Origin: Minisyncoccota bacterium
Lineage (GTDB): Bacteria > Patescibacteriota > Minisyncoccia > Phycocordibacterales > JBAYGS01
Assembly: GCA_041666545.1 (NCBI GenBank)
Contig: JBAYGS010000005.1
Coordinates: 18,842 to 82,841, forward strand
Direction: 5' to 3'
Length of the DNA stretch: 64,000 nt
In this document: positions 3,482 through 62,283 of the stretch, one piece after another
Layout of the letters: each line of letters starts with the position of its first letter
Numbering within the stretch: the stretch's first letter is position 1
Program-made: the position numbers and the translations under genes
The notes under the pieces: generated by a model
Told to the model about the DNA's origin: nothing
What the model saw: the letters and a program-made list of their open reading frames with translations, nothing else
Databases searched by the model: none

Positions 3482-3820
3482 ATGAAAAGAATCGAGGCCG
3501 TAATTCAACCGCACACTTTGGATGATGTGAGAAAGGCGCTCATCGCAATCGGCGTGGAAGGCATGACGGTTTTTGAGGCCAAAGGCTTCGGCCGACAACA
3601 CGGCCACACCGAAATCTATCGGGGTAGTGAATACGATTACCATTTCGTGCCGAAAATTTATATCTTGTTGATGGTCAAAAAGTCCCAAGTGAAACAGGTG
3701 GTCGCGACTATTCGCGAAGCAGCCAACACCAAAAAAATCGGCGCCGGCAAAATCTTCGTCTCTCCCCTCGAGGACGCGATCCGAATTCGCACCAACGAAG
3801 ACGGTGAAGGGGCTCTTTAG
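3482..3820 (+). CDS. glnB: Nitrogen regulatory protein P-II (GlnB/GlnK family)
   Basis: MKRIEAVIQPHTLDDVRKALIAIGVEGMTVFEAKGFGRQHGHTEIYRGSEY...GKIFVSPLEDAIRIRTNEDGE matches E. coli GlnB closely. The T-loop GFGRQxGHTExYRG and Tyr51 are conserved. Confidence 0.85.
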   Translation: MKRIEAVIQPHTLDDVRKALIAIGVEGMTVFEAKGFGRQHGHTEIYRGSEYDYHFVPKIYILLMVKKSQVKQVVATIREAANTKKIGAGKIFVSPLEDAIRIRTNEDGEGAL

Positions 3821-3832
3821 AAAGGAAACCTC

Positions 3833-4420
3833 ATGACTGCCGAAAAACTGCTTGAGACAATCGAAATCTATCAGAATTTTTTTGTCGAGTCGGGTTTCAA
3901 AAAGGCCGGGCAACTGCACGACGAGCTCCCGGCCTTCCCACAGGTGAGGACGGCGGAGGCGCCATTTAGAGAGGAAGGAGCGATTCCTGAAGAACTACTT
4001 GAGGCAATCGAAACCTACCGGAAATTCTTCGTCGAATCAGGCTTCAAGAAAACTGAACACCTGCACGACGAACTTCTAACCAGCGACCAGTCCGGGTTCG
4101 AACACTGCCACGGAATGCTGGACCGAATGGTCAAGTTTGTTCAAGAAGGGCGGTTGGAAAAAGCTTTTCGCTGGCTCGGCTTTATCCAAGGTTTCCTCTG
4201 GTCAAGGCGAGTTTTCGCCCTAGCCGAACACAATGACAAGGCCGGATTTGAGCACTGCCACGGCATGCTGGACCCAATGGTTAGATTCGTTCATGAAGGA
4301 AGGTTGGAAAAAACTTTCCGTTGGCTTGGCTTTATCCAGGGTTTCCTCTGGGCCCATCGGATCTACACCTTGGCCGAAATCAAAGACCATAATCGGTCCA
4401 AAGGTCTGCTTGACCCTTAG
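3833..4420 (+). CDS. Hypothetical protein built from two pairs of internal tandem repeats (FFVESGFKK...LHDEL x2; GFEHCHGMLDxMVxFVxEGRLEKxFRWLGFIQGFLW x2)
   Basis: Direct tandem duplication is visible at both the protein and DNA level (3840-3920 vs 3990-4070; 4085-4230 vs 4235-4385). The gene starts 13 nt after the glnB stop. Confidence 0.5.
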   Translation: MTAEKLLETIEIYQNFFVESGFKKAGQLHDELPAFPQVRTAEAPFREEGAIPEELLEAIETYRKFFVESGFKKTEHLHDELLTSDQSGFEHCHGMLDRMVKFVQEGRLEKAFRWLGFIQGFLWSRRVFALAEHNDKAGFEHCHGMLDPMVRFVHEGRLEKTFRWLGFIQGFLWAHRIYTLAEIKDHNRSKGLLDP

Positions 4421-21869: not shown

Positions 21870-21987
21870 AAAATAATTTAAAATTGAAAGGTCAAAATGG
21901 AAAATTGCAATTTAAAATCTAAAATTAGATTCTGAAAATTATTCAATTTTGCATTGTCATTTTTCATTTTGAGATTTACATTTTCCA
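21870..21987. repeat. AT-rich roughly 118-bp repeat between rpsZ and rpsH that ends with the exact 30-mer AATTTTTCATTTTGAGATTTACATTTTCCA
   Basis: The 30-mer is identical at 29349-29378. Related copies lie at 39925-39990, 61842-61897 and in the 5' leader of the four-helix-bundle gene (62264-62290). Confidence 0.6.
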
Positions 21988-29261: not shown

Positions 29262-29386
29262 TAAATCAAAATTAAAATCTCAAAATTTAAAATGACAATG
29301 TAAAAGTCAAAATTGGATTCGGAAAAGTTTTAAATTTTAAATTATAATTTTTCATTTTGAGATTTACATTTTCCATTTAGTTGGAA
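29262..29386. repeat. AT-rich roughly 125-bp repeat between rplC and rplD, homologous to 21870-21987 and ending in the same 30-mer
   Basis: AATTTTTCATTTTGAGATTTACATTTTCCA at 29349-29378. The minus-sense strand contains a TTATAAT box. Confidence 0.6.
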
Positions 29387-29989
29387 TTATCCGATAATTT
29401 CAACTAAAGTTCCTCGTCGTCCTGGGATGGCACCGGAAATCGCGATGACATTTTCGGCCGCATTAACCTCGACAATCTTCAAATTCTTAATGGTGATTCG
29501 ATCGCTACCCATTCGACCGGCCATTCTCATACCTTTTGGAACCTTATTTCGGAGACCACCGCCGATTGAACCCGGCTCGCGCTCGGAGTGCTTCTGGCCG
29601 TGAGATCGAGGACCACCTTTAAAACCGTGTCGCTTCACAACACCCTGAAAGCCCTTACCCTTTGAAACTGCCGAAACGGTGACCAAATCCCCGGCCGCAA
29701 AAGTTTCCGGCTTAATCTCGTCACCAACTTTCAAATCTTTAACGTCTCTAAATTCTTTAAGCAAAGCGAACTTTCCGGAAGTTTTTAGGTGGCCGAGTTC
29801 AGCCTTGGTCAAATTCTTCTCATGCTTGGAACCAAAACCAACCTGAACAGCATCATAACCGTCTTTTTCAGAAGTTTTGACTTGAGTGACGATAACCGGA
29901 CCGGTCGAAATAAGGGTGACAGGGGTCACTTTGCCGGCATCAGACCAAACCTGGGTCATATTTAGTTTTGTACCTAAGATAAATTTCAT
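29387..29989 (-). CDS. rplC: 50S ribosomal protein L3
   Basis: MKFILGTKLNMTQVWSDAGK... is canonical L3. Confidence 0.9.
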   Translation of the reverse strand: MKFILGTKLNMTQVWSDAGKVTPVTLISTGPVIVTQVKTSEKDGYDAVQVGFGSKHEKNLTKAELGHLKTSGKFALLKEFRDVKDLKVGDEIKPETFAAGDLVTVSAVSKGKGFQGVVKRHGFKGGPRSHGQKHSEREPGSIGGGLRNKVPKGMRMAGRMGSDRITIKNLKIVEVNAAENVIAISGAIPGRRGTLVEIIG

Positions 29990-30108
29990 TCCGATTAGAG
30001 ATTGGAAATGGAGGCCATTTCCTAGCCTTTAGCAACTAAAGCCATTCAATAGAGTTTGTCGCGTATAGAGATTAAACTGTAATTCTTAACTGTCTTATCT
30101 CTAACGGA
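29990..30108. mobile_element. MITE-like element of about 119 bp with terminal inverted repeats CCGaTTAGAGAT / ATCTCTAACGG, abutting the rplC start codon
   Basis: Same TIR family (CCCGTTAGAGAT) as 53546-53677, 54391-54508 and the short hairpin at 40036-40094. Confidence 0.6.
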
Positions 30109-30308
30109 ACTTAAATCCTTTCCTTTATTGAACACGGCACATGGCCGGCGGTTCGCGAACTTCCTTAAACATCCTTGCAGAAGAGAATTCCGCAATGGGA
30201 CAAGGTTAGCAAATCCTCCCAAAAAAGTAAAGGGCCCACACGAATCGGATTCGCGTGGGCCGGAAAAACGGCTTCAAGTATGCGAAGGGCAGGATTCTGA
30301 GCCAATAG

Positions 30309-30761
30309 CTAACGGCAAGCCGAAGAAATGGCCTCCTGAGCATAGCGATCAAGATCAACTTCCTTTTTGAGCTTTTCTCCTGGGATTTCCGGGCTCCATC
30401 GAAACATTCTGAACCCCTGTCTCGCCAAAACCAGACACAAGGAATCGAGAACAATAAGCGCTCGTGAGTTTCGCCACATCTTCCACTCTTCACTCAATTC
30501 AGGAACATCGAAGGCCTGGCTGCGTGTCGGATTGACCAGGATCAATTTTTCAACAACTCGAAACTCCTTTCTTGGTAAAAATCGGATAGCCGACCGGACA
30601 TCAGCCTTGCTAAGACACACAAATTCCCGCCACCTGGCGCGACCACGACCAATGTTTACATGAGCCGGCGGACACCAGTTGTGATCAAGACAAATCGAAA
30701 ATCCAGCCATCAACCGCCAACCGTCTAAATCAGACAGACGGATCAATTTATTTGCTTTCAC
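30309..30761 (-). CDS. Hypothetical protein (150 aa), followed on its strand by a terminator hairpin
   Basis: The hairpin GGGCCCACGCGAATCCGATTCGTGTGGGCCC plus a T-run at 30232-30262 lies downstream on the minus strand. No family was recognised. Confidence 0.45.
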   Translation of the reverse strand: MKANKLIRLSDLDGWRLMAGFSICLDHNWCPPAHVNIGRGRARWREFVCLSKADVRSAIRFLPRKEFRVVEKLILVNPTRSQAFDVPELSEEWKMWRNSRALIVLDSLCLVLARQGFRMFRWSPEIPGEKLKKEVDLDRYAQEAISSACR

Positions 30762-30890
30762 ATTTTCCTTTCTCTTTAAGTGAATCCTCTCTCGTCATAC
30801 TATTCATCCATCTTATACTTGTCAAATATAAACCCTGTGGTAGTCTAAAAAAGGACATCCAGTTCTAAAACATCAAATGAAAGGCGAAAT

Positions 30891-31679
30891 GTGAGTAAAG
30901 AAAATGAGGTTGAAAGGAAAGACCGATTCATCGACCTGTCACTCCCCCAATGCGGCCCGGTTCTTTATGGCTACGGCAGTGGCGCCTACCATATCAAATA
31001 TCGCGGAGAAATCCTCGTTGATTTTCTCGGTCGCCTCCGAAAAAAGATGGAGAAACTCGCGTCAGAACTCAACCAAGCCTGGAAAGCGCTCGACAAAGCC
31101 AACCCGGAAAGCCCGAGGAACCGCGACATCATTCAGAAGATGCTCCAAGCCGGTTTTTGGGCCTACGCCCAGACTTTGGAAATCCAAATCTATAACAAGG
31201 AGTGCGTCTACGGAATAACCAGCCCCCTTCACGACATCATCGTCAACCCGCTTGAGAATATCTATATGAGGTGTTTCGCGGCCGCCCACATGTGGGGTGA
31301 CCTGGACGAAAAGATGCTCGGACTCAACGGGCTTTTGACCGACTTCGAGGTCAACGGCGGAATCGATCACAAAACCGGAGACAAGGGCAATGGTTTCGGC
31401 AAATCCTTGCTCGATTACTACATCGCTTACTTCGCTCAAAACCAGCGCGGAACCGAAGCTTACTTGGCCTTCGGCGAACTGATCGATGCCCTGTTTCAAA
31501 TGACAAAAAAACGGTACCCGAAAATTCTGACGGAACTCGCTAAAGCAATCCGCTCGAGAATGACCGAGACTTACTACGGCTTCGGTAACAAGGAGGTCAC
31601 TTCCCCGGCTAAAGTGGCGCTCCTTTCGAAGCTTGAAGCAATCACCCAACCGTACGAGGAAAAGGAAAAGGCCGCCTAG
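30891..31679 (+). CDS. Hypothetical protein (262 aa) with an apparent GTG start, divergent from 30309..30761
   Basis: No family was recognised. It contains an R-x5-H motif (RCFAAAH) that could be HEPN-like, but this is weak. Confidence 0.45.
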   Translation: MSKENEVERKDRFIDLSLPQCGPVLYGYGSGAYHIKYRGEILVDFLGRLRKKMEKLASELNQAWKALDKANPESPRNRDIIQKMLQAGFWAYAQTLEIQIYNKECVYGITSPLHDIIVNPLENIYMRCFAAAHMWGDLDEKMLGLNGLLTDFEVNGGIDHKTGDKGNGFGKSLLDYYIAYFAQNQRGTEAYLAFGELIDALFQMTKKRYPKILTELAKAIRSRMTETYYGFGNKEVTSPAKVALLSKLEAITQPYEEKEKAA

Positions 31680-31785
31680 GCCAACCAAATCCCACCGGTC
31701 GTCACCAGACGACCGGTTTTTTATTGTTAACAAAATTCGAGGAGTAAAATATTGACAATGTAATTACATTGTATATACTGAACTC

Positions 31786-32052
31786 ATGACCACATTACAA
31801 ATTCGCATCGACGAAAACACCAAAAAGAGGGCTAAAAAAACTCTCAAGGACCTCGGGCTGGATATTTCCTCCGGAGTGAAACTATTTTTGGAGCAAGTGA
31901 TAACCACCCAATCTATACCCTTTTCCGCCGTTACTCCGGCAGGCTATAAGCTTCGCAATTGGAAGCAACTAAAAATAGAAATAGCGGAAGCAAAAAAAGG
32001 TAAGGGGTACACGACGGCAGAAAAGATGCATGCTGATATTTTTAAAAAATAG
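31786..32052 (+). CDS. dinJ: RelB/DinJ-family antitoxin (ribbon-helix-helix)
   Basis: MTTLQIRIDENTKKRAKKTLKDLGLDISSGVKLFLEQVITTQSIPF matches the DinJ N-terminal consensus. Confidence 0.7.
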   Translation: MTTLQIRIDENTKKRAKKTLKDLGLDISSGVKLFLEQVITTQSIPFSAVTPAGYKLRNWKQLKIEIAEAKKGKGYTTAEKMHADIFKK

Positions 32053-32061
32053 TGGCATTCA

Positions 32062-32340
32062 ATGTACTCTCTTAAACCCACGGCAAAATACAGAAAATCC
32101 ATTAGGAAACTGGCAATGTCTGGCCGATTTAGGATCGGAGACTTAGACAAAATTCTCAACCTGCTTGCTTCTGGTAAAACACTTGAACCGAAGTATCGAA
32201 GCCACCCGCTTAACGGAGAATATGCCGGTTGTTTTGAGTGTCATGTGAAAAGTGACCTACTGCTTATTTACGAAATCGACAAATCAGAACGAGAATTAAC
32301 TATTATTGATATCGGTAGCCATTCGGATTTATTTGAGTAG
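32062..32340 (+). CDS. yafQ: YafQ-family toxin (RelE/ParE superfamily mRNA interferase)
   Basis: KYRSHPLNGEYAGCFECHVKSDLLLIYEIDKSERELTIIDIGSHSDLF matches YafQ. It lies 9 nt after dinJ. A terminator (AAAAACCGCCGAAAGGCGGTTTTTTG) follows at 32341-32372. Confidence 0.7.
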   Translation: MYSLKPTAKYRKSIRKLAMSGRFRIGDLDKILNLLASGKTLEPKYRSHPLNGEYAGCFECHVKSDLLLIYEIDKSERELTIIDIGSHSDLFE

Positions 32341-32450
32341 CAAAAAACCGCCGAAAGGCGGTTTTTTGATCTTACCGCCCCGACGAAATTAAGAAATTTG
32401 TCGGGGTTAAGAAAATTGGCCCCTTACTTTTCAGTAAGAGGCTCAATTTT

Positions 32451-32843
32451 CTACAACATTTTCACATCAATATTCACGCCAGATGGGAGCGAAAGATTGG
32501 TCAAAGCTTCGATAACTTTCGGAGCCGGATTAATGATATCAATCAATCGCTTGTGAACTCGCATCTCAAATTGTTCTCGCGCATTTTTGTAGACGAAAGC
32601 TGAACGGTTGACCGTGTACTTCTTAATCTCAGTCGGCAATGGTACCGGGCCAAGCATTTCGGCATCGAAACGCAAAGCGGTGTCCATGATTTGTTTAATC
32701 GAGGCATCTAGAACCTTGTGTTCGTAGGCCCTGACCCGAATTCGAAGCTTTCCAATGCCCTCTTCTTTGTCCTTCTTGGCAACTGCCTTTTTGACAGCTT
32801 TAGGCTTGGCGACTTTTTCGGTTGTTTTAGTAGTTTTAGGCAT
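32451..32843 (-). CDS. rpsJ: 30S ribosomal protein S10 with a Lys-rich N-terminal extension
   Basis: ...GKLRIRVRAYEHKVLDASIKQIMDTA...VPLPTEIKKYTVNRS... is the S10 core. Confidence 0.85.
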   Translation of the reverse strand: MPKTTKTTEKVAKPKAVKKAVAKKDKEEGIGKLRIRVRAYEHKVLDASIKQIMDTALRFDAEMLGPVPLPTEIKKYTVNRSAFVYKNAREQFEMRVHKRLIDIINPAPKVIEALTNLSLPSGVNIDVKML

Positions 32844-39924: not shown

Positions 39925-39990
39925 ATTTAATGGAAAATGGAAATCTCAAAATGAAAAATTATAAGATCTCAAATTAAACTAAAATTAGCC
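39925..39990. repeat. AT-rich repeat (inverted copy of the TTTTCATTTTGAGATTTcCATTTTCC family) upstream of rpsL; contains a TTATAAT box in the rpsL sense
   Basis: GGAAAATGGAAATCTCAAAATGAAAAATTATAAGATCTCAAA. Confidence 0.55.
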
Positions 39991-40035
39991 CAAGGGCTGT
40001 GTAGGCACTAATCTACTATGGTTCAATAATAATTG

Positions 40036-40094
40036 CAACCCCGTTAGAGACAGCTCGTCGCCCCGACGACCTGTCTCTAACGGGGGCAACCCCT
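40036..40094. repeat. Long perfect hairpin GCAACCCCGTTAGAGACAG-ctcgtcgccccgacgac-CTGTCTCTAACGGGGGCAAC, a short member of the CCCGTTAGAGA TIR family; likely terminator of the surface-protein gene
   Basis: 19-bp stem. It lies between the stop of 40122..42662 and the rpsL promoter region. Confidence 0.6.
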
Positions 40095-53535: not shown

Positions 53536-53545
53536 TTTTAGATTA

Positions 53546-53677
53546 TATCATCCCGTTAGAGATCTTTTGTTAGGAAGCCTTAGCTGGACGATAAATTCCC
53601 ACCAAATATCGACGGCCAGAGATTCACCGTGAGCAACGGTCATCTTGATGACCTATCTCTAACGGGATATCATCCCG
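53546..53677. mobile_element. MITE-like element of about 130 bp with TIRs ATCATCCCGTTAGAGATC / GATCTCTAACGGGATATCATCCCG, in the recJ upstream region
   Basis: Inverted repeats flank about 100 bp. Same TIR family as 29990-30108 and 54391-54508. Confidence 0.65.
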
Positions 53678-53737
53678 CAACTAGACCAATTGACACATTT
53701 CCAAAATTGACTATCCTTTGCAAAGGAAAGGAACTTT

Positions 53738-54322
53738 ATGAGAAAAAGTTTAGGCTATCGCTTCAGAGAAATTGTCGACCGAAAGACACAAGAACAAACA
53801 GAAAGGCTGAAAGCCAAGAAATTGGCCGAGAGCCGAAAGCAGAAAAAGCAGGAACAGCTCAAGGCGATGGTCCAAAAGGCTATGGCAAAAGCTGAAAAAA
53901 TCCTTAACGGAATCTTTAAGAGGGCGCCGGAAATCAGACAGTATGTCGAAACCAGGTCTGGCGCCCCACTTTACATCTTCGATGCCAACGGAGTTGAAAA
54001 GACTGAGGCTAGACGAATGAAAGTGACTGGAAAAGTCGAAGACGCGCTCGGTCTTGGTATCAGGGGTAAGACTGTTGAACTTCTGGGTGGTGACAATATC
54101 CTAGGTCGGGCCGTTTGGACCACAGACAAAGCCGGCTCAACCCTCTGCCTCGTCCACGACTCACAGAGCAGGCTGTGTATCGCAATTATGAGCACAAAGC
54201 GAACTTACGGGGTGGTCTTCACCGAAACTAACTCTTTCAACACCGATGAGATGCTAACCGTCTTGGCCAAGTTTGGAAACCAAGAAACTGCCATGGAAAT
54301 GCTGGTTGAGCAACTCGGATGA
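53738..54322 (+). CDS. Hypothetical protein (194 aa) flanked on both sides by MITE-like elements
   Basis: Lys/Glu-rich helical N-terminus and an unrecognised C-terminal domain. AAAGGAAAGGAA lies upstream of the ATG. A TTGACA box at about 53689 sits just outside the left MITE. Confidence 0.45.
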   Translation: MRKSLGYRFREIVDRKTQEQTERLKAKKLAESRKQKKQEQLKAMVQKAMAKAEKILNGIFKRAPEIRQYVETRSGAPLYIFDANGVEKTEARRMKVTGKVEDALGLGIRGKTVELLGGDNILGRAVWTTDKAGSTLCLVHDSQSRLCIAIMSTKRTYGVVFTETNSFNTDEMLTVLAKFGNQETAMEMLVEQLG

Positions 54323-54390
54323 AGTAAAATCAATTTGACCCTCGTCCACCTAACGGATGAGGGCTTTTTTCTTCATACCATATACCCTAT

Positions 54391-54508
54391 CCCGTTAGAA
54401 GTCGCGGACGCTAACAACAGTTGTCTGTTTGCGGAAAATGTTTAATACAGATAGCGGAGCGTAGTTTGTTGTATAATGATTGGATGTCCGCGTCCTACTT
54501 CTAACGGG
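54391..54508. mobile_element. MITE-like element of about 118 bp with TIRs CCCGTTAGAAGTCGCGGACGC / GTCCGCGTCCTACTTCTAACGGG; contains an outward-facing TGTTGTATAAT extended -10 box upstream of the HIT gene
   Basis: Inverted repeats flank about 75 bp. TTGTTGTATAATGATTGG sits 60 nt upstream of the HIT start. Confidence 0.65.
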
Positions 54509-54535
54509 ACTTATACTTAATACTATCTACTTTTT

Positions 54536-61897: not shown

Positions 61898-62263
61898 TTA
61901 TGTTTTAGTGTTAAGATACTTGAAGCGATAATATTTGAAATCTCCCCCAAGTTCCTTTAGTAACCATTGTAGCTCATTTTTGGGACCTTTGTCAGTATCT
62001 CTTAACAAAGTCAGCCAGACTTTCGACTCATTCGCAGATTTTAGAGAGTGGGTAAAAAAATTAATGAAATCTTTCCTCGATGATGCGGAGTCAGCCTCCA
62101 CATAATTAGCGAGAACACTGGTACCACTCCTCAAGAGCTGCTTCCCCATGACTGAACCGACCTGGTCCTTTGGCAATCTATCAATAAATTTGACCAAACT
62201 TAAAACCCAAAAATATAGTCTTTTCTTAAATTCATTTTTAAATTTTGCCTTGACATTTTCCAT
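61898..62263 (-). CDS. Four-helix-bundle protein (the family typically encoded in 23S rRNA intervening sequences), inserted between pilB and pilC
   Basis: ...LANYVEADSASSRKDFINFFTHSLKSANESKVWLTLL... matches the four-helix-bundle (TIGR02436-like) consensus. Its 5' leader and start (AATGTAAAATGGAAATCTAAAAATGGAAAATG) are homologous to the dispersed AT-rich repeats. Confidence 0.6.
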   Translation of the reverse strand: MENVKAKFKNEFKKRLYFWVLSLVKFIDRLPKDQVGSVMGKQLLRSGTSVLANYVEADSASSRKDFINFFTHSLKSANESKVWLTLLRDTDKGPKNELQWLLKELGGDFKYYRFKYLNTKT

Positions 62264-62283
62264 TTTTAGATTTCCATTTTACA

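Follow-up and report, generated by a model that had tools for sequence, protein, structure and literature searches.

The 64,000 nucleotides of Minisyncoccota DNA considered here (assembly GCA_041666545.1, contig JBAYGS010000005.1, positions 18,842 to 82,841; this whole stretch is referred to below as the window) carry genes of the S10 ribosomal-protein operon and, further along, a HIT gene and recJ that are separated by orf194, an open reading frame (ORF) of 194 codons. Set among these genes are four short inverted-repeat elements, which we call e1 to e4: e1 lies against rplC, e3 and e4 stand on either side of orf194, and e2 lies between these two regions. An initial annotation had described them as a family of non-autonomous elements resembling miniature transposable elements with inverted repeats (MITEs). 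All four members are indeed present, and their insertion-derived character is borne out by terminal inverted repeats and by target-site duplications (TSDs), both in the window and in relatives from other genomes. As to their origin, we argue that they are probably gene-less derivatives of a minimal mobile GIY-YIG nuclease gene, of ~278 bp and 86-95 amino acids, the ends of which are the inverted repeats themselves.

Four elements and the genes around them

At each of the four places, the sequence (Y)CCCGTTAGARRY is followed by its own reverse complement. The 12-mer CCCGTTAGAGAT, with at most one mismatch, has five matches in the window against 0.27 expected, a count reached by no shuffle, and its core 8-mer CCGTTAGA has seven against 1.35 expected. 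These matches are the inverted pairs at the sites first described plus a lone right arm of e1, the left arm of which goes uncounted because it is degenerate and falls beyond the mismatch limit. All that the four elements have in common is their inverted termini of ~13 bp, YCCCGTTAGARRY...RYYTCTAACGGGR; the long copies e1, e3 and e4 (117-121 bp) have interiors that cannot be aligned in any orientation. All four fold far better than shuffled sequences (z -2.8 to -9.6). None of them, at 47-121 bp with arms of 12-14 bp, contains a long ORF, and the window holds no transposase gene, as had been noted before, nor any nuclease gene. The places originally given for the elements stand, with limits now refined to take in the terminal Y...R pair; the description of e2 as a perfect hairpin of 59 bp does not, as this element is 47 bp long and has one mismatch.

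The most complete of the four is e3 (53551-53667, plus strand), with 117 bp and perfect 14-bp terminal inverted repeats, 13 bp of each repeat lying inside the element and one flanking base being added per side. Alone among the window copies, e3 has the exact 12-mer at both ends. A subterminal hairpin, GGTCATC-ttga-GATGACC, is followed by TA-TCTCTAACGGG-A (fold z -5.3), and a perfect TSD of TATCA can be read directly on the left (53546-53550) and right (53668-53672). The outer flanks are ...GATTATATCA and TCCCGCAAC..., and the predicted empty site would join them through a single TATCA. Directly after the right TATCA, at 53668-53685, one finds TCCCGCAACTAGACC, which repeats the first five bases of the left arm (TCCCG); this may be the remnant of an older neighboring element, as in the tandem arrays described below, or may be due to chance.

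The short hairpin e2 (40039-40085, no strand assigned) consists of both arms and an inner stem, GCTCGTCG/CGACGACC. Its arms of 22 nt are 95% complementary, its predicted fold has an energy of -38.9 kcal/mol (z -9.6), and it, too, is bounded by a perfect duplication, GCAA, at 40035-40038 on the left and 40086-40089 on the right. The 120-bp e4 (54390-54509, plus strand), with arms CCCGTTAGAAGT/ACTTCTAACGGG, features a long-range stem, GGACGC...GCGTCC, followed by TA (fold z -6.3), and lies 26 nt upstream of the HIT ATG; its flanks are CCTA and CTTA. Ordinary intrinsic terminators, with a GC-rich stem and a T run, had been named as the alternative source of such inverted repeats, and none of the four elements is called as one; the only terminator found is that of orf194. 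Integron attC sites can likewise be set aside, as these need the order RYYYAAC ... GTTRRRY and one sees here GTTAGAG ... CTCTAAC on both strands.

The fourth element, e1 (29989-30109, minus strand), is 121 bp long with degenerate arms, TCCG-A-TTAGAGAT / ATCTCTAACGGA. Its polar end, consisting of the hairpin GGAAATGG/CCATTTCC and then AA-TCTCTAATCGG-A, is set against rplC with an 8-bp anchored stem; the element stops with the A that opens the rplC ATG, and so abuts rplC just as first described. On the other side of e1 lies a Shine-Dalgarno-like sequence, AAAGGAAAGGA (30116-30126, minus strand), to which we assign that function from its sequence and position; e1 thus sits exactly between AAAGGAAAGGA and the ATG. 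The distance from one to the other is ~126 nt along the linear sequence and ~6 nt if the e1 stem forms. The predicted fold pairs the element ends, including the AU of the AUG, and the e1 hairpin would in this manner restore the proximity of Shine-Dalgarno sequence and start codon.

Several other features of this region and of the window deserve mention in their own right. The genes rpsJ (32451-32843) and rplC (29387-29989) of the S10 operon are ~2.4 kb apart, with extra DNA at 29990-32450 that holds a YafQ/ParE-type toxin gene (32062-32340, plus strand) together with ORFs without assigned function. At the rplC-side border of this insertion lies e1; no arm is seen at the rpsJ-side border. A second repeat, TTTTCATTTTGAGATTTACATTTT, occurs in four copies with at most three mismatches, against 0 expected, at 21961-21984, 29349-29372, 39934-39957 (minus strand) and 62257-62280, embedded in AT-rich inverted repeats that lie in the gaps separating ribosomal-protein genes and immediately upstream of rpsL. 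Finally, at 569-1859 a 323-aa ORF with a weak match to a recombinase zinc ribbon lies beside the transfer-messenger RNA (tmRNA) gene (1476-1859), with a helix-turn-helix gene, a SMODS-domain gene and a HigB-like toxin gene upstream of it (locus L210, 1660-10000); this group looks like an island integrated at the tmRNA gene.

Returning to e3 and e4, the gene between them, orf194 (53738-54322, plus strand), is an ORFan that has expression signals to itself: a promoter-like site (53690-53717), a Shine-Dalgarno sequence and, by scan, an intrinsic terminator (54339-54363, plus strand). A database search with its product finds orf194 itself only and no family match, and we therefore dropped the idea that it encodes a partner enzyme for the elements. 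Of 80 relatives, 64 have HIT and recJ as divergent neighbors with ~35-150 bp between them, and none of these has arms in the HIT-recJ spacer; the nearest relatives share only 58% RecJ identity. Given this adjacency, the lack of arms in relatives and the lack of homologues for orf194, the e3-orf194-e4 block is lineage-specific; orf194 itself is absent from relatives. As a separate observation, the HIT-recJ spacer measures 0.55-1.15 kb, as opposed to the usual <150 bp, in four loci (L130, L131, L153 and L171), and extra DNA may land repeatedly in this divergent promoter region.

Such a block, bounded by two related elements, had been likened in the initial annotation to a composite transposon. 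One would then expect the whole to have been captured between hairpin repeats as a composite unit or island and moved or exchanged as one, much as genes stand between NTS hairpin repeats in Neisseria, where these repeats are clustered around genes (Chenal et al., 2025; PMC11893778). The conservation of the HIT-recJ pair, the arm-free spacers and the ORFan status of orf194 all speak for this view, as does the fact that deleting 53551-54509 leaves a spacer of 41 bp, close to the ancestral size; that e1 likewise borders the 2.4-kb rpsJ-rplC insertion is a further point in its favor. Against it, the outer flanks of the block, ATCA and CTTA, differ, and e3 has a TATCA pair of its own and therefore inserted alone, with orf194 already beside recJ. 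Moreover, e3 and e4 are direct rather than inverted relative to each other, both facing the same way and each aimed at its own downstream gene, in the usual layout of one element per gene start, and the block has neither a second copy nor any compositional anomaly. On balance, joint movement of the block is unlikely, and the composite transposon is not upheld.

On the recJ side of this locus, an extended -10 sequence, TGATATAAT (53542-53550, minus strand), can be read directly 6 nt upstream of the recJ ATG; it is not listed by the promoter scan, which needs a -35 sequence. Its TGATA is the TSD of e3. Placed 15 bp upstream of the recJ ATG, e3 thus lies directly against a surviving -10 and has replaced the sequence upstream of it, the -35 region included. 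The position of this -10, as read from the sequence, suggests a leaderless-type promoter for recJ.

A polar family with paired ends

To place the four elements in a wider context, we scanned with the pattern CCCGTTAGAR-N80-110-YTCTAACGGG, using one genome per species and requiring exact arms. The matches comprise at least 120 loci, nearly all in Patescibacteria (the candidate phyla radiation, CPR), Omnitrophota and Planctomycetota, with a few in Deltaproteobacteria and others. By our own arithmetic, ~67 chance matches are expected in the 596 Gb scanned; that the matches are real follows from the conservation of positions outside the search pattern, namely the pairing of the ends and the flanking repeats. 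Family statistics below refer to a set of 131 copies unless another set is named.

Beyond the arms themselves, the two bases that adjoin them on the outside, one on either side, pair with each other in 97% of copies, and the four flanking bases next to these are direct repeats, with 78-85% identity per position, or 70-87% once the set is split by gene context. This flanking repeat is perfect in 90 of 130 copies and, among copies away from genes, in 33 of 54; the duplicated sequence is mostly TGAA/TTCA, TGGA or TAAA. The family unit is YCCCGTTAGA...TCTAACGGGR with a TSD of 4 bp, sometimes 5 bp, and the perfect duplications at e2 and e3 in the window are matched by an agreement of ~80% per TSD position in the family at large.

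The elements are also polar. At one end there is a subterminal stem, separated from the arm by exactly 2 nt (TA or TG), stems of at least 6 bp being found at this offset in 59 of the 131 copies, as opposed to 4-17 at most other offsets. In sequence, 94 different stems are seen, and in an all-against-all comparison of interiors only these subterminal stems are shared. In the stem formed by the two ends of the element, positions -1, 9, 10 and 11 differ from copy to copy, yet the partners there are Watson-Crick 92-97% of the time, compared with the 44-53% that the composition of the columns would give. There are, in addition, forms of just 27-30 bp that consist of the two arms only, some with flanking repeats and some nested in other copies. 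Together, the covarying stem and these 27-bp forms argue that the ends act as one stem folded from a single strand, and not as two double-stranded binding sites.

Insertion of one element into or beside another is seen repeatedly. Nested copies occur at four loci (L019, L117, L124 and L011); at the last of these (3774-4159), an element carrying a GIY-YIG gene is broken after the codons ...YYEACL by a nested element of ~105 bp. Tandem arrays of two or three elements, always with the same 6-base spacer (ATGAAT or ATTCAT), occur at L031 and at L035 (7674-7895). In L031 (5893-6284) three elements stand in a row, the units being separated by ATGAAT and the middle unit having variant arms, CCCGTAGT...ACTACGGG; to judge from its sequence, such an array would be the expected outcome of repeated insertion into a regenerated target. 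We also noticed a single case of sibling copies, at L055 (3752-3871 and 6471-6588), where the interiors are related (~75% identical by eye) and the flanks and gene starts differ.

Among viral contigs (IMG/VR), only two matches were found (L223, 6554-6671, and L224, 8692-8809), so that phages are not the main carriers. Rfam has no family that matches at the gathering threshold or at E values up to 10. A full-text literature search with the arm sequence returns unrelated primers only, and searches for MITEs in CPR, or for GIY-YIG together with MITEs, turned up nothing relevant.

The nuclease gene and insertion at start codons

Four loci (L201, L102, L033 and L011) contain longer versions of ~280 bp, in which the arms are unchanged and the interiors are similar. 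Each of these has one ORF, read from the stemless arm towards the stem-bearing arm (for example, MNPVRDTEVMFYTYILKSEKNGIMYTGYTNDLRKRL...KNRLKRFLSLTG), and this ORF matches the Pfam family GIY-YIG (PF01541) with an E value of 8.9e-17 over residues 10-77 of 95, with no other domain. The ORF fills the element end to end, the intact form being ~278 bp. In a large database the protein has 2866 homologues with lengths of 85-95 aa; among the best 120 of these, 79 are of 95 aa, 80 start with M-x-PVR and 107 end in LSLTG. From these conserved starts and ends it follows that the arms of the element are the two ends of a reading frame. The left arm, read from the host ATG plus CCCGTTAGAGAT, encodes M-x-P-V-R-D, and the right arm encodes ...F-L-S-L-T-G-stop, from TTCC TA TCT CTA ACG GGA TGA. 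The initial annotation had predicted an autonomous parent, and longer, gene-bearing relatives with the same termini do exist; the further supposition that the parent would be an insertion sequence (IS) with a transposase is not supported, the probable parent being a GIY-YIG minigene.

The stem of the short forms is present in this gene as well. An internal inverted repeat of 11-15 nt pairs the codons for RKRLK with those for RLRRF, and its 3' half is the TTTCC-TA ahead of the arm, the same stem as in the short forms. An element of 183 bp (L193), in which MNPVRDYIV, LRKRL and RRFLSLTG are still readable in broken frames, is an intermediate between gene and remnant. At L206, L211 and L214 the ORF starts at the flanking ATGAAT and finishes with a TGA that shares bases with the ATG of the host gene after it; one of these three shows, in addition, an overlap between the host gene on the upstream side and the ATG of the element. 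The protein has no match in NCBIfam, and its nearest solved structures are UPF0213 proteins (E 1e-6). As an aside, distant small GIY-YIG genes of 31-52% identity occur in some of the fetched loci (L031, 2208-2462; L041, 6573-6770; L122, 1953-2150; L176, 8297-8521), flanked by quite different GC-rich hairpins such as CGCCAGCTGGCGGAGG, which suggests that CPR genomes hold many such pairs of nuclease and repeat.

These gene-bearing forms bear directly on whether the short elements are classical MITEs, that is, deletion derivatives of an IS whose DDE transposase would recognize the 12-bp terminal inverted repeats as double-stranded DNA. Such a system would account for the inverted repeats, the 4-5-bp TSD, the shortness and multiplicity of the elements and their nested and tandem insertion, and TSDs of 4 bp are characteristic of several IS families. 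Yet every longer element found carries only the GIY-YIG ORF, end to end. No transposase lies between arms in ~1.6 Mb of fetched loci, nor do these loci contain, apart from the ~280-bp forms, any copies whose arms are spaced by 0.3-5 kb. Those 27-30-bp forms that have flanking repeats would be too short for two double-stranded ends to be brought together, and the terminal stem covaries, a sign that the ends pair. We thus regard descent from a DDE-transposase element as quite improbable, and favor descent from the nuclease gene.

The second distinctive feature of the family is its position. In 76 of the 131 copies (58%), the terminal base of the element is at the same time the first base of an ORF that has at least 50 codons, with the stem-bearing end facing that gene 33 times and facing away four times. 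The upstream flank is nearly always ATGRRY. Where the terminal pair is C...G, the left flank is ATGAAC and the gene now starts with GTGAA; these ten cases fit a 4-bp TSD plus a first base derived from the element, with insertion at A|TGAA. They also contradict the 6-bp overlap that would be shared by arm-6 bp-arm junctions of a tyrosine recombinase (lox/dif-like), a candidate that was rejected for this reason. Near relatives of RecJ, too, five complete elements were found in 759 kb, and all five abut gATG. Many of the upstream ATGs sit 6-7 nt past a TATAAT-like box, a spacing from which we conclude that the target genes are often leaderless.

How a host gene may continue to be expressed behind such an element is suggested by the frame that runs through it. 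The short ORF from the upstream ATG stays open up to the TAA of the right arm or to a TGA overlapping the start codon in 23 of 60 copies, compared with 6 of 60 in each other sense frame and 7-15 of 60 in the antisense frames, which suggests coupling by termination and re-initiation. A peptide product of the short elements was considered and rejected, as their lengths have no mod-3 bias and the open frame is better read as tolerance through translational coupling. Nor is there support for the idea that the elements supply promoters as a rule. The 76 gene-abutting copies contain 93 -10-like boxes in the sense direction and 84 in the antisense direction, with no strand bias, and the TATAAT within e4 (54472-54477), initially seen as an outward promoter aimed at HIT, has no -35 partner and is not called by a consensus promoter scan. 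Of the promoter rewiring first proposed, what survives is the replacement of the recJ -35 region by e3.

One might, on the other hand, see in these elements RNA or DNA structures that are kept by the host for a function, such as 5' leaders for the tuning of translation, RNase III processing sites, terminators or invertible promoters, with mobility being irrelevant. Their strong folds, covarying terminal stem and constant position at gene starts would fit this idea, as would the excess of open upstream frames and the way in which e1 separates the AUG of an essential gene from its Shine-Dalgarno sequence. Arguing the other way are the lack of an Rfam match, flanks that are duplications, copies that are nested and in tandem, and an occurrence that is sporadic among relatives, at 5 per 759 kb. 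An invertible promoter, in particular, is at odds with the lack of strand bias in the boxes, with flanking direct repeats, which are unexpected for invertons, and with the single orientation seen in the assemblies: four others of the window locus, being 99.97-100% identical and hence without polymorphism information, include no inverted variant. Finally, e2 is not terminator-like, and a nuclease gene has these arms as its coding ends. The chance that these are simply host-maintained structures is, in our estimation, very slight indeed, and the nuclease gene remains the source that we prefer.

A proposed mechanism and its relation to known systems

The association of small GIY-YIG genes with hairpin repeats was recognized only in 2025, with their mobility being left open. 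In that work, single-domain GIY-YIG proteins of ~94 aa, named Ssn, were found to cut single-stranded DNA beside a hairpin repeat, NTS/SRM, of which hundreds of copies lie dispersed and which flanks the ssn gene (Chenal et al., Nat Commun 2025, PMC11893778). These authors noted that the NTS-ssnA-NTS layout is IS-like (PMC11893778). In outline, and without being classed here as a member, the present family resembles this system: its parent elements, as opposed to the window copies, encode a single-domain GIY-YIG protein of ~90 aa in a gene bounded by hairpin-forming repeats, and there are many gene-less copies of the repeat, mostly between genes and around particular genes. The two differ in that here the ORF ends are themselves the repeats, which pair with each other over the length of the gene, whereas Ssn has a complete hairpin on each side. 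The SRM motif, HGTCWYN(0-2)YYVSBRHN(0-5)WNVSBRGN(0-2)RNCYNB, has 0 matches in the window. Nor does the Ssn paper describe TSDs, start-codon insertion, ~118-bp forms with variable interiors or hosts among CPR, Omnitrophota and Planctomycetota (PMC11893778).

With the nuclease gene as parent, the following course of events would account for the features described above. Insertion would duplicate 4 bp, occasionally 5, with A|TGAA as the preferred site, such that the element would usually come to lie inside a start codon. The upstream copy of the target would retain the host ATG, which would then head the nuclease ORF, and the terminal A or G of the element plus the duplicated TGAA would rebuild an ATG or GTG for the host gene, overlapped by the nuclease stop as ATGA. 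Internal deletion and decay would then give rise to the forms of ~183 bp, ~118 bp, 47 bp and 27-30 bp, with the arms and subterminal stem being kept. By analogy with Ssn and the NTS hairpins, the nuclease may act on a folded single strand in which both arms form the stem, and it could in this way mobilize long and short forms alike. Host expression would survive via translational coupling, or because a hairpin places the AUG next to the Shine-Dalgarno sequence (or to the 5' end). In the window, e1 would be such an insertion on the start codon of rplC, e2 a short hairpin form, and e3 and e4 insertions that arose independently, the one in the 5' region of orf194 and the other in that of HIT.

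A number of observations weigh against this account. In the window itself, e1 has no recognizable TSD (2/4 match) and that of e4 agrees at only 3/4 positions, and the GIY-YIG gene is found neither in the window nor in the 9.4 kb upstream of it. The ~118-bp interiors have no residual protein homology to the nuclease, so that the evidence for the descent of the short forms comes from the ends (the arms), from the stem and from one intermediate. At L011, the flanks of the nested copy, GTTTAC/GTAAAC, are inverted, and not direct as in ~90% of copies. The requirement for exact arms in the scan biases both abundance and arm conservation. As to chemistry, GIY-YIG nucleases cut DNA, and to our knowledge none is known to join it; another enzyme could move the elements, with the nuclease a passenger.

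Several better-known repeat families invite comparison. The Correia/nemis elements of Neisseria, along with ERIC and RUP, are akin to the present family in being 100-160 bp long, with terminal inverted repeats and a TSD, in lying near gene starts and being co-transcribed, and in having long hairpins able to affect expression. Correia elements have 26-bp terminal inverted repeats, a TA duplication and conserved interiors, and we know of no nuclease gene with the same ends associated with them; the family described here, by contrast, shares ~13 bp per end, has a 4-bp TSD (TNNA) and derives from a GIY-YIG minigene. The REP/REPIN-RAYT system, too, has one small nuclease gene flanked by its own hairpin repeats, from which non-coding doublets have spread, and folded single strands are what is recognized. 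RAYT is, however, an IS200/IS605-like Y1 transposase of the HUH/Y1 fold, as opposed to GIY-YIG here, and REPINs are not known to make a TSD or to be bound to start codons. Free-standing GIY-YIG homing endonucleases such as T4 Seg are likewise small selfish genes wedged between host genes. Homing endonucleases have a DNA-binding domain and copy into one cognate site by recombination, and they are not known to have inverted termini or TSDs. Each of these three, then, shares only single features with the present family.

A widespread family of GIY-YIG minigene elements and remnants with a start-codon habit thus appears to have gone undescribed before. That it further constitutes a new class of minimal selfish GIY-YIG element, one that inserts into start codons at A|TGAA, takes over the host promoter and ATG, couples the rebuilt ATG or GTG through ATGA, and has left many hairpin remnants in at least three phyla, is a proposal that we put forward tentatively, as somewhat short of an even bet. 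The family does provide signs of mobility at the level of sequence, in its TSDs, its nested and serial insertions and its decay series from gene to hairpin, and these would, if the proposal is true, answer the question of 2025 as to whether Ssn-type genes with hairpins are mobile. Should the nuclease itself drive movement via a folded single strand, this would amount to a GIY-YIG-based mode of transposition. In practical terms, gene calling may be confused by 95-aa ORFs that borrow host starts and by host genes shifted to GTG, and nuclease/hairpin pairs of defined sequence are natural material for single-strand DNA tools. For the organism, the elements mark borders of lineage-specific DNA, and they represent an unusual case of non-lethal insertion into essential genes, as in the S10 ribosomal-protein operon of a streamlined CPR genome.

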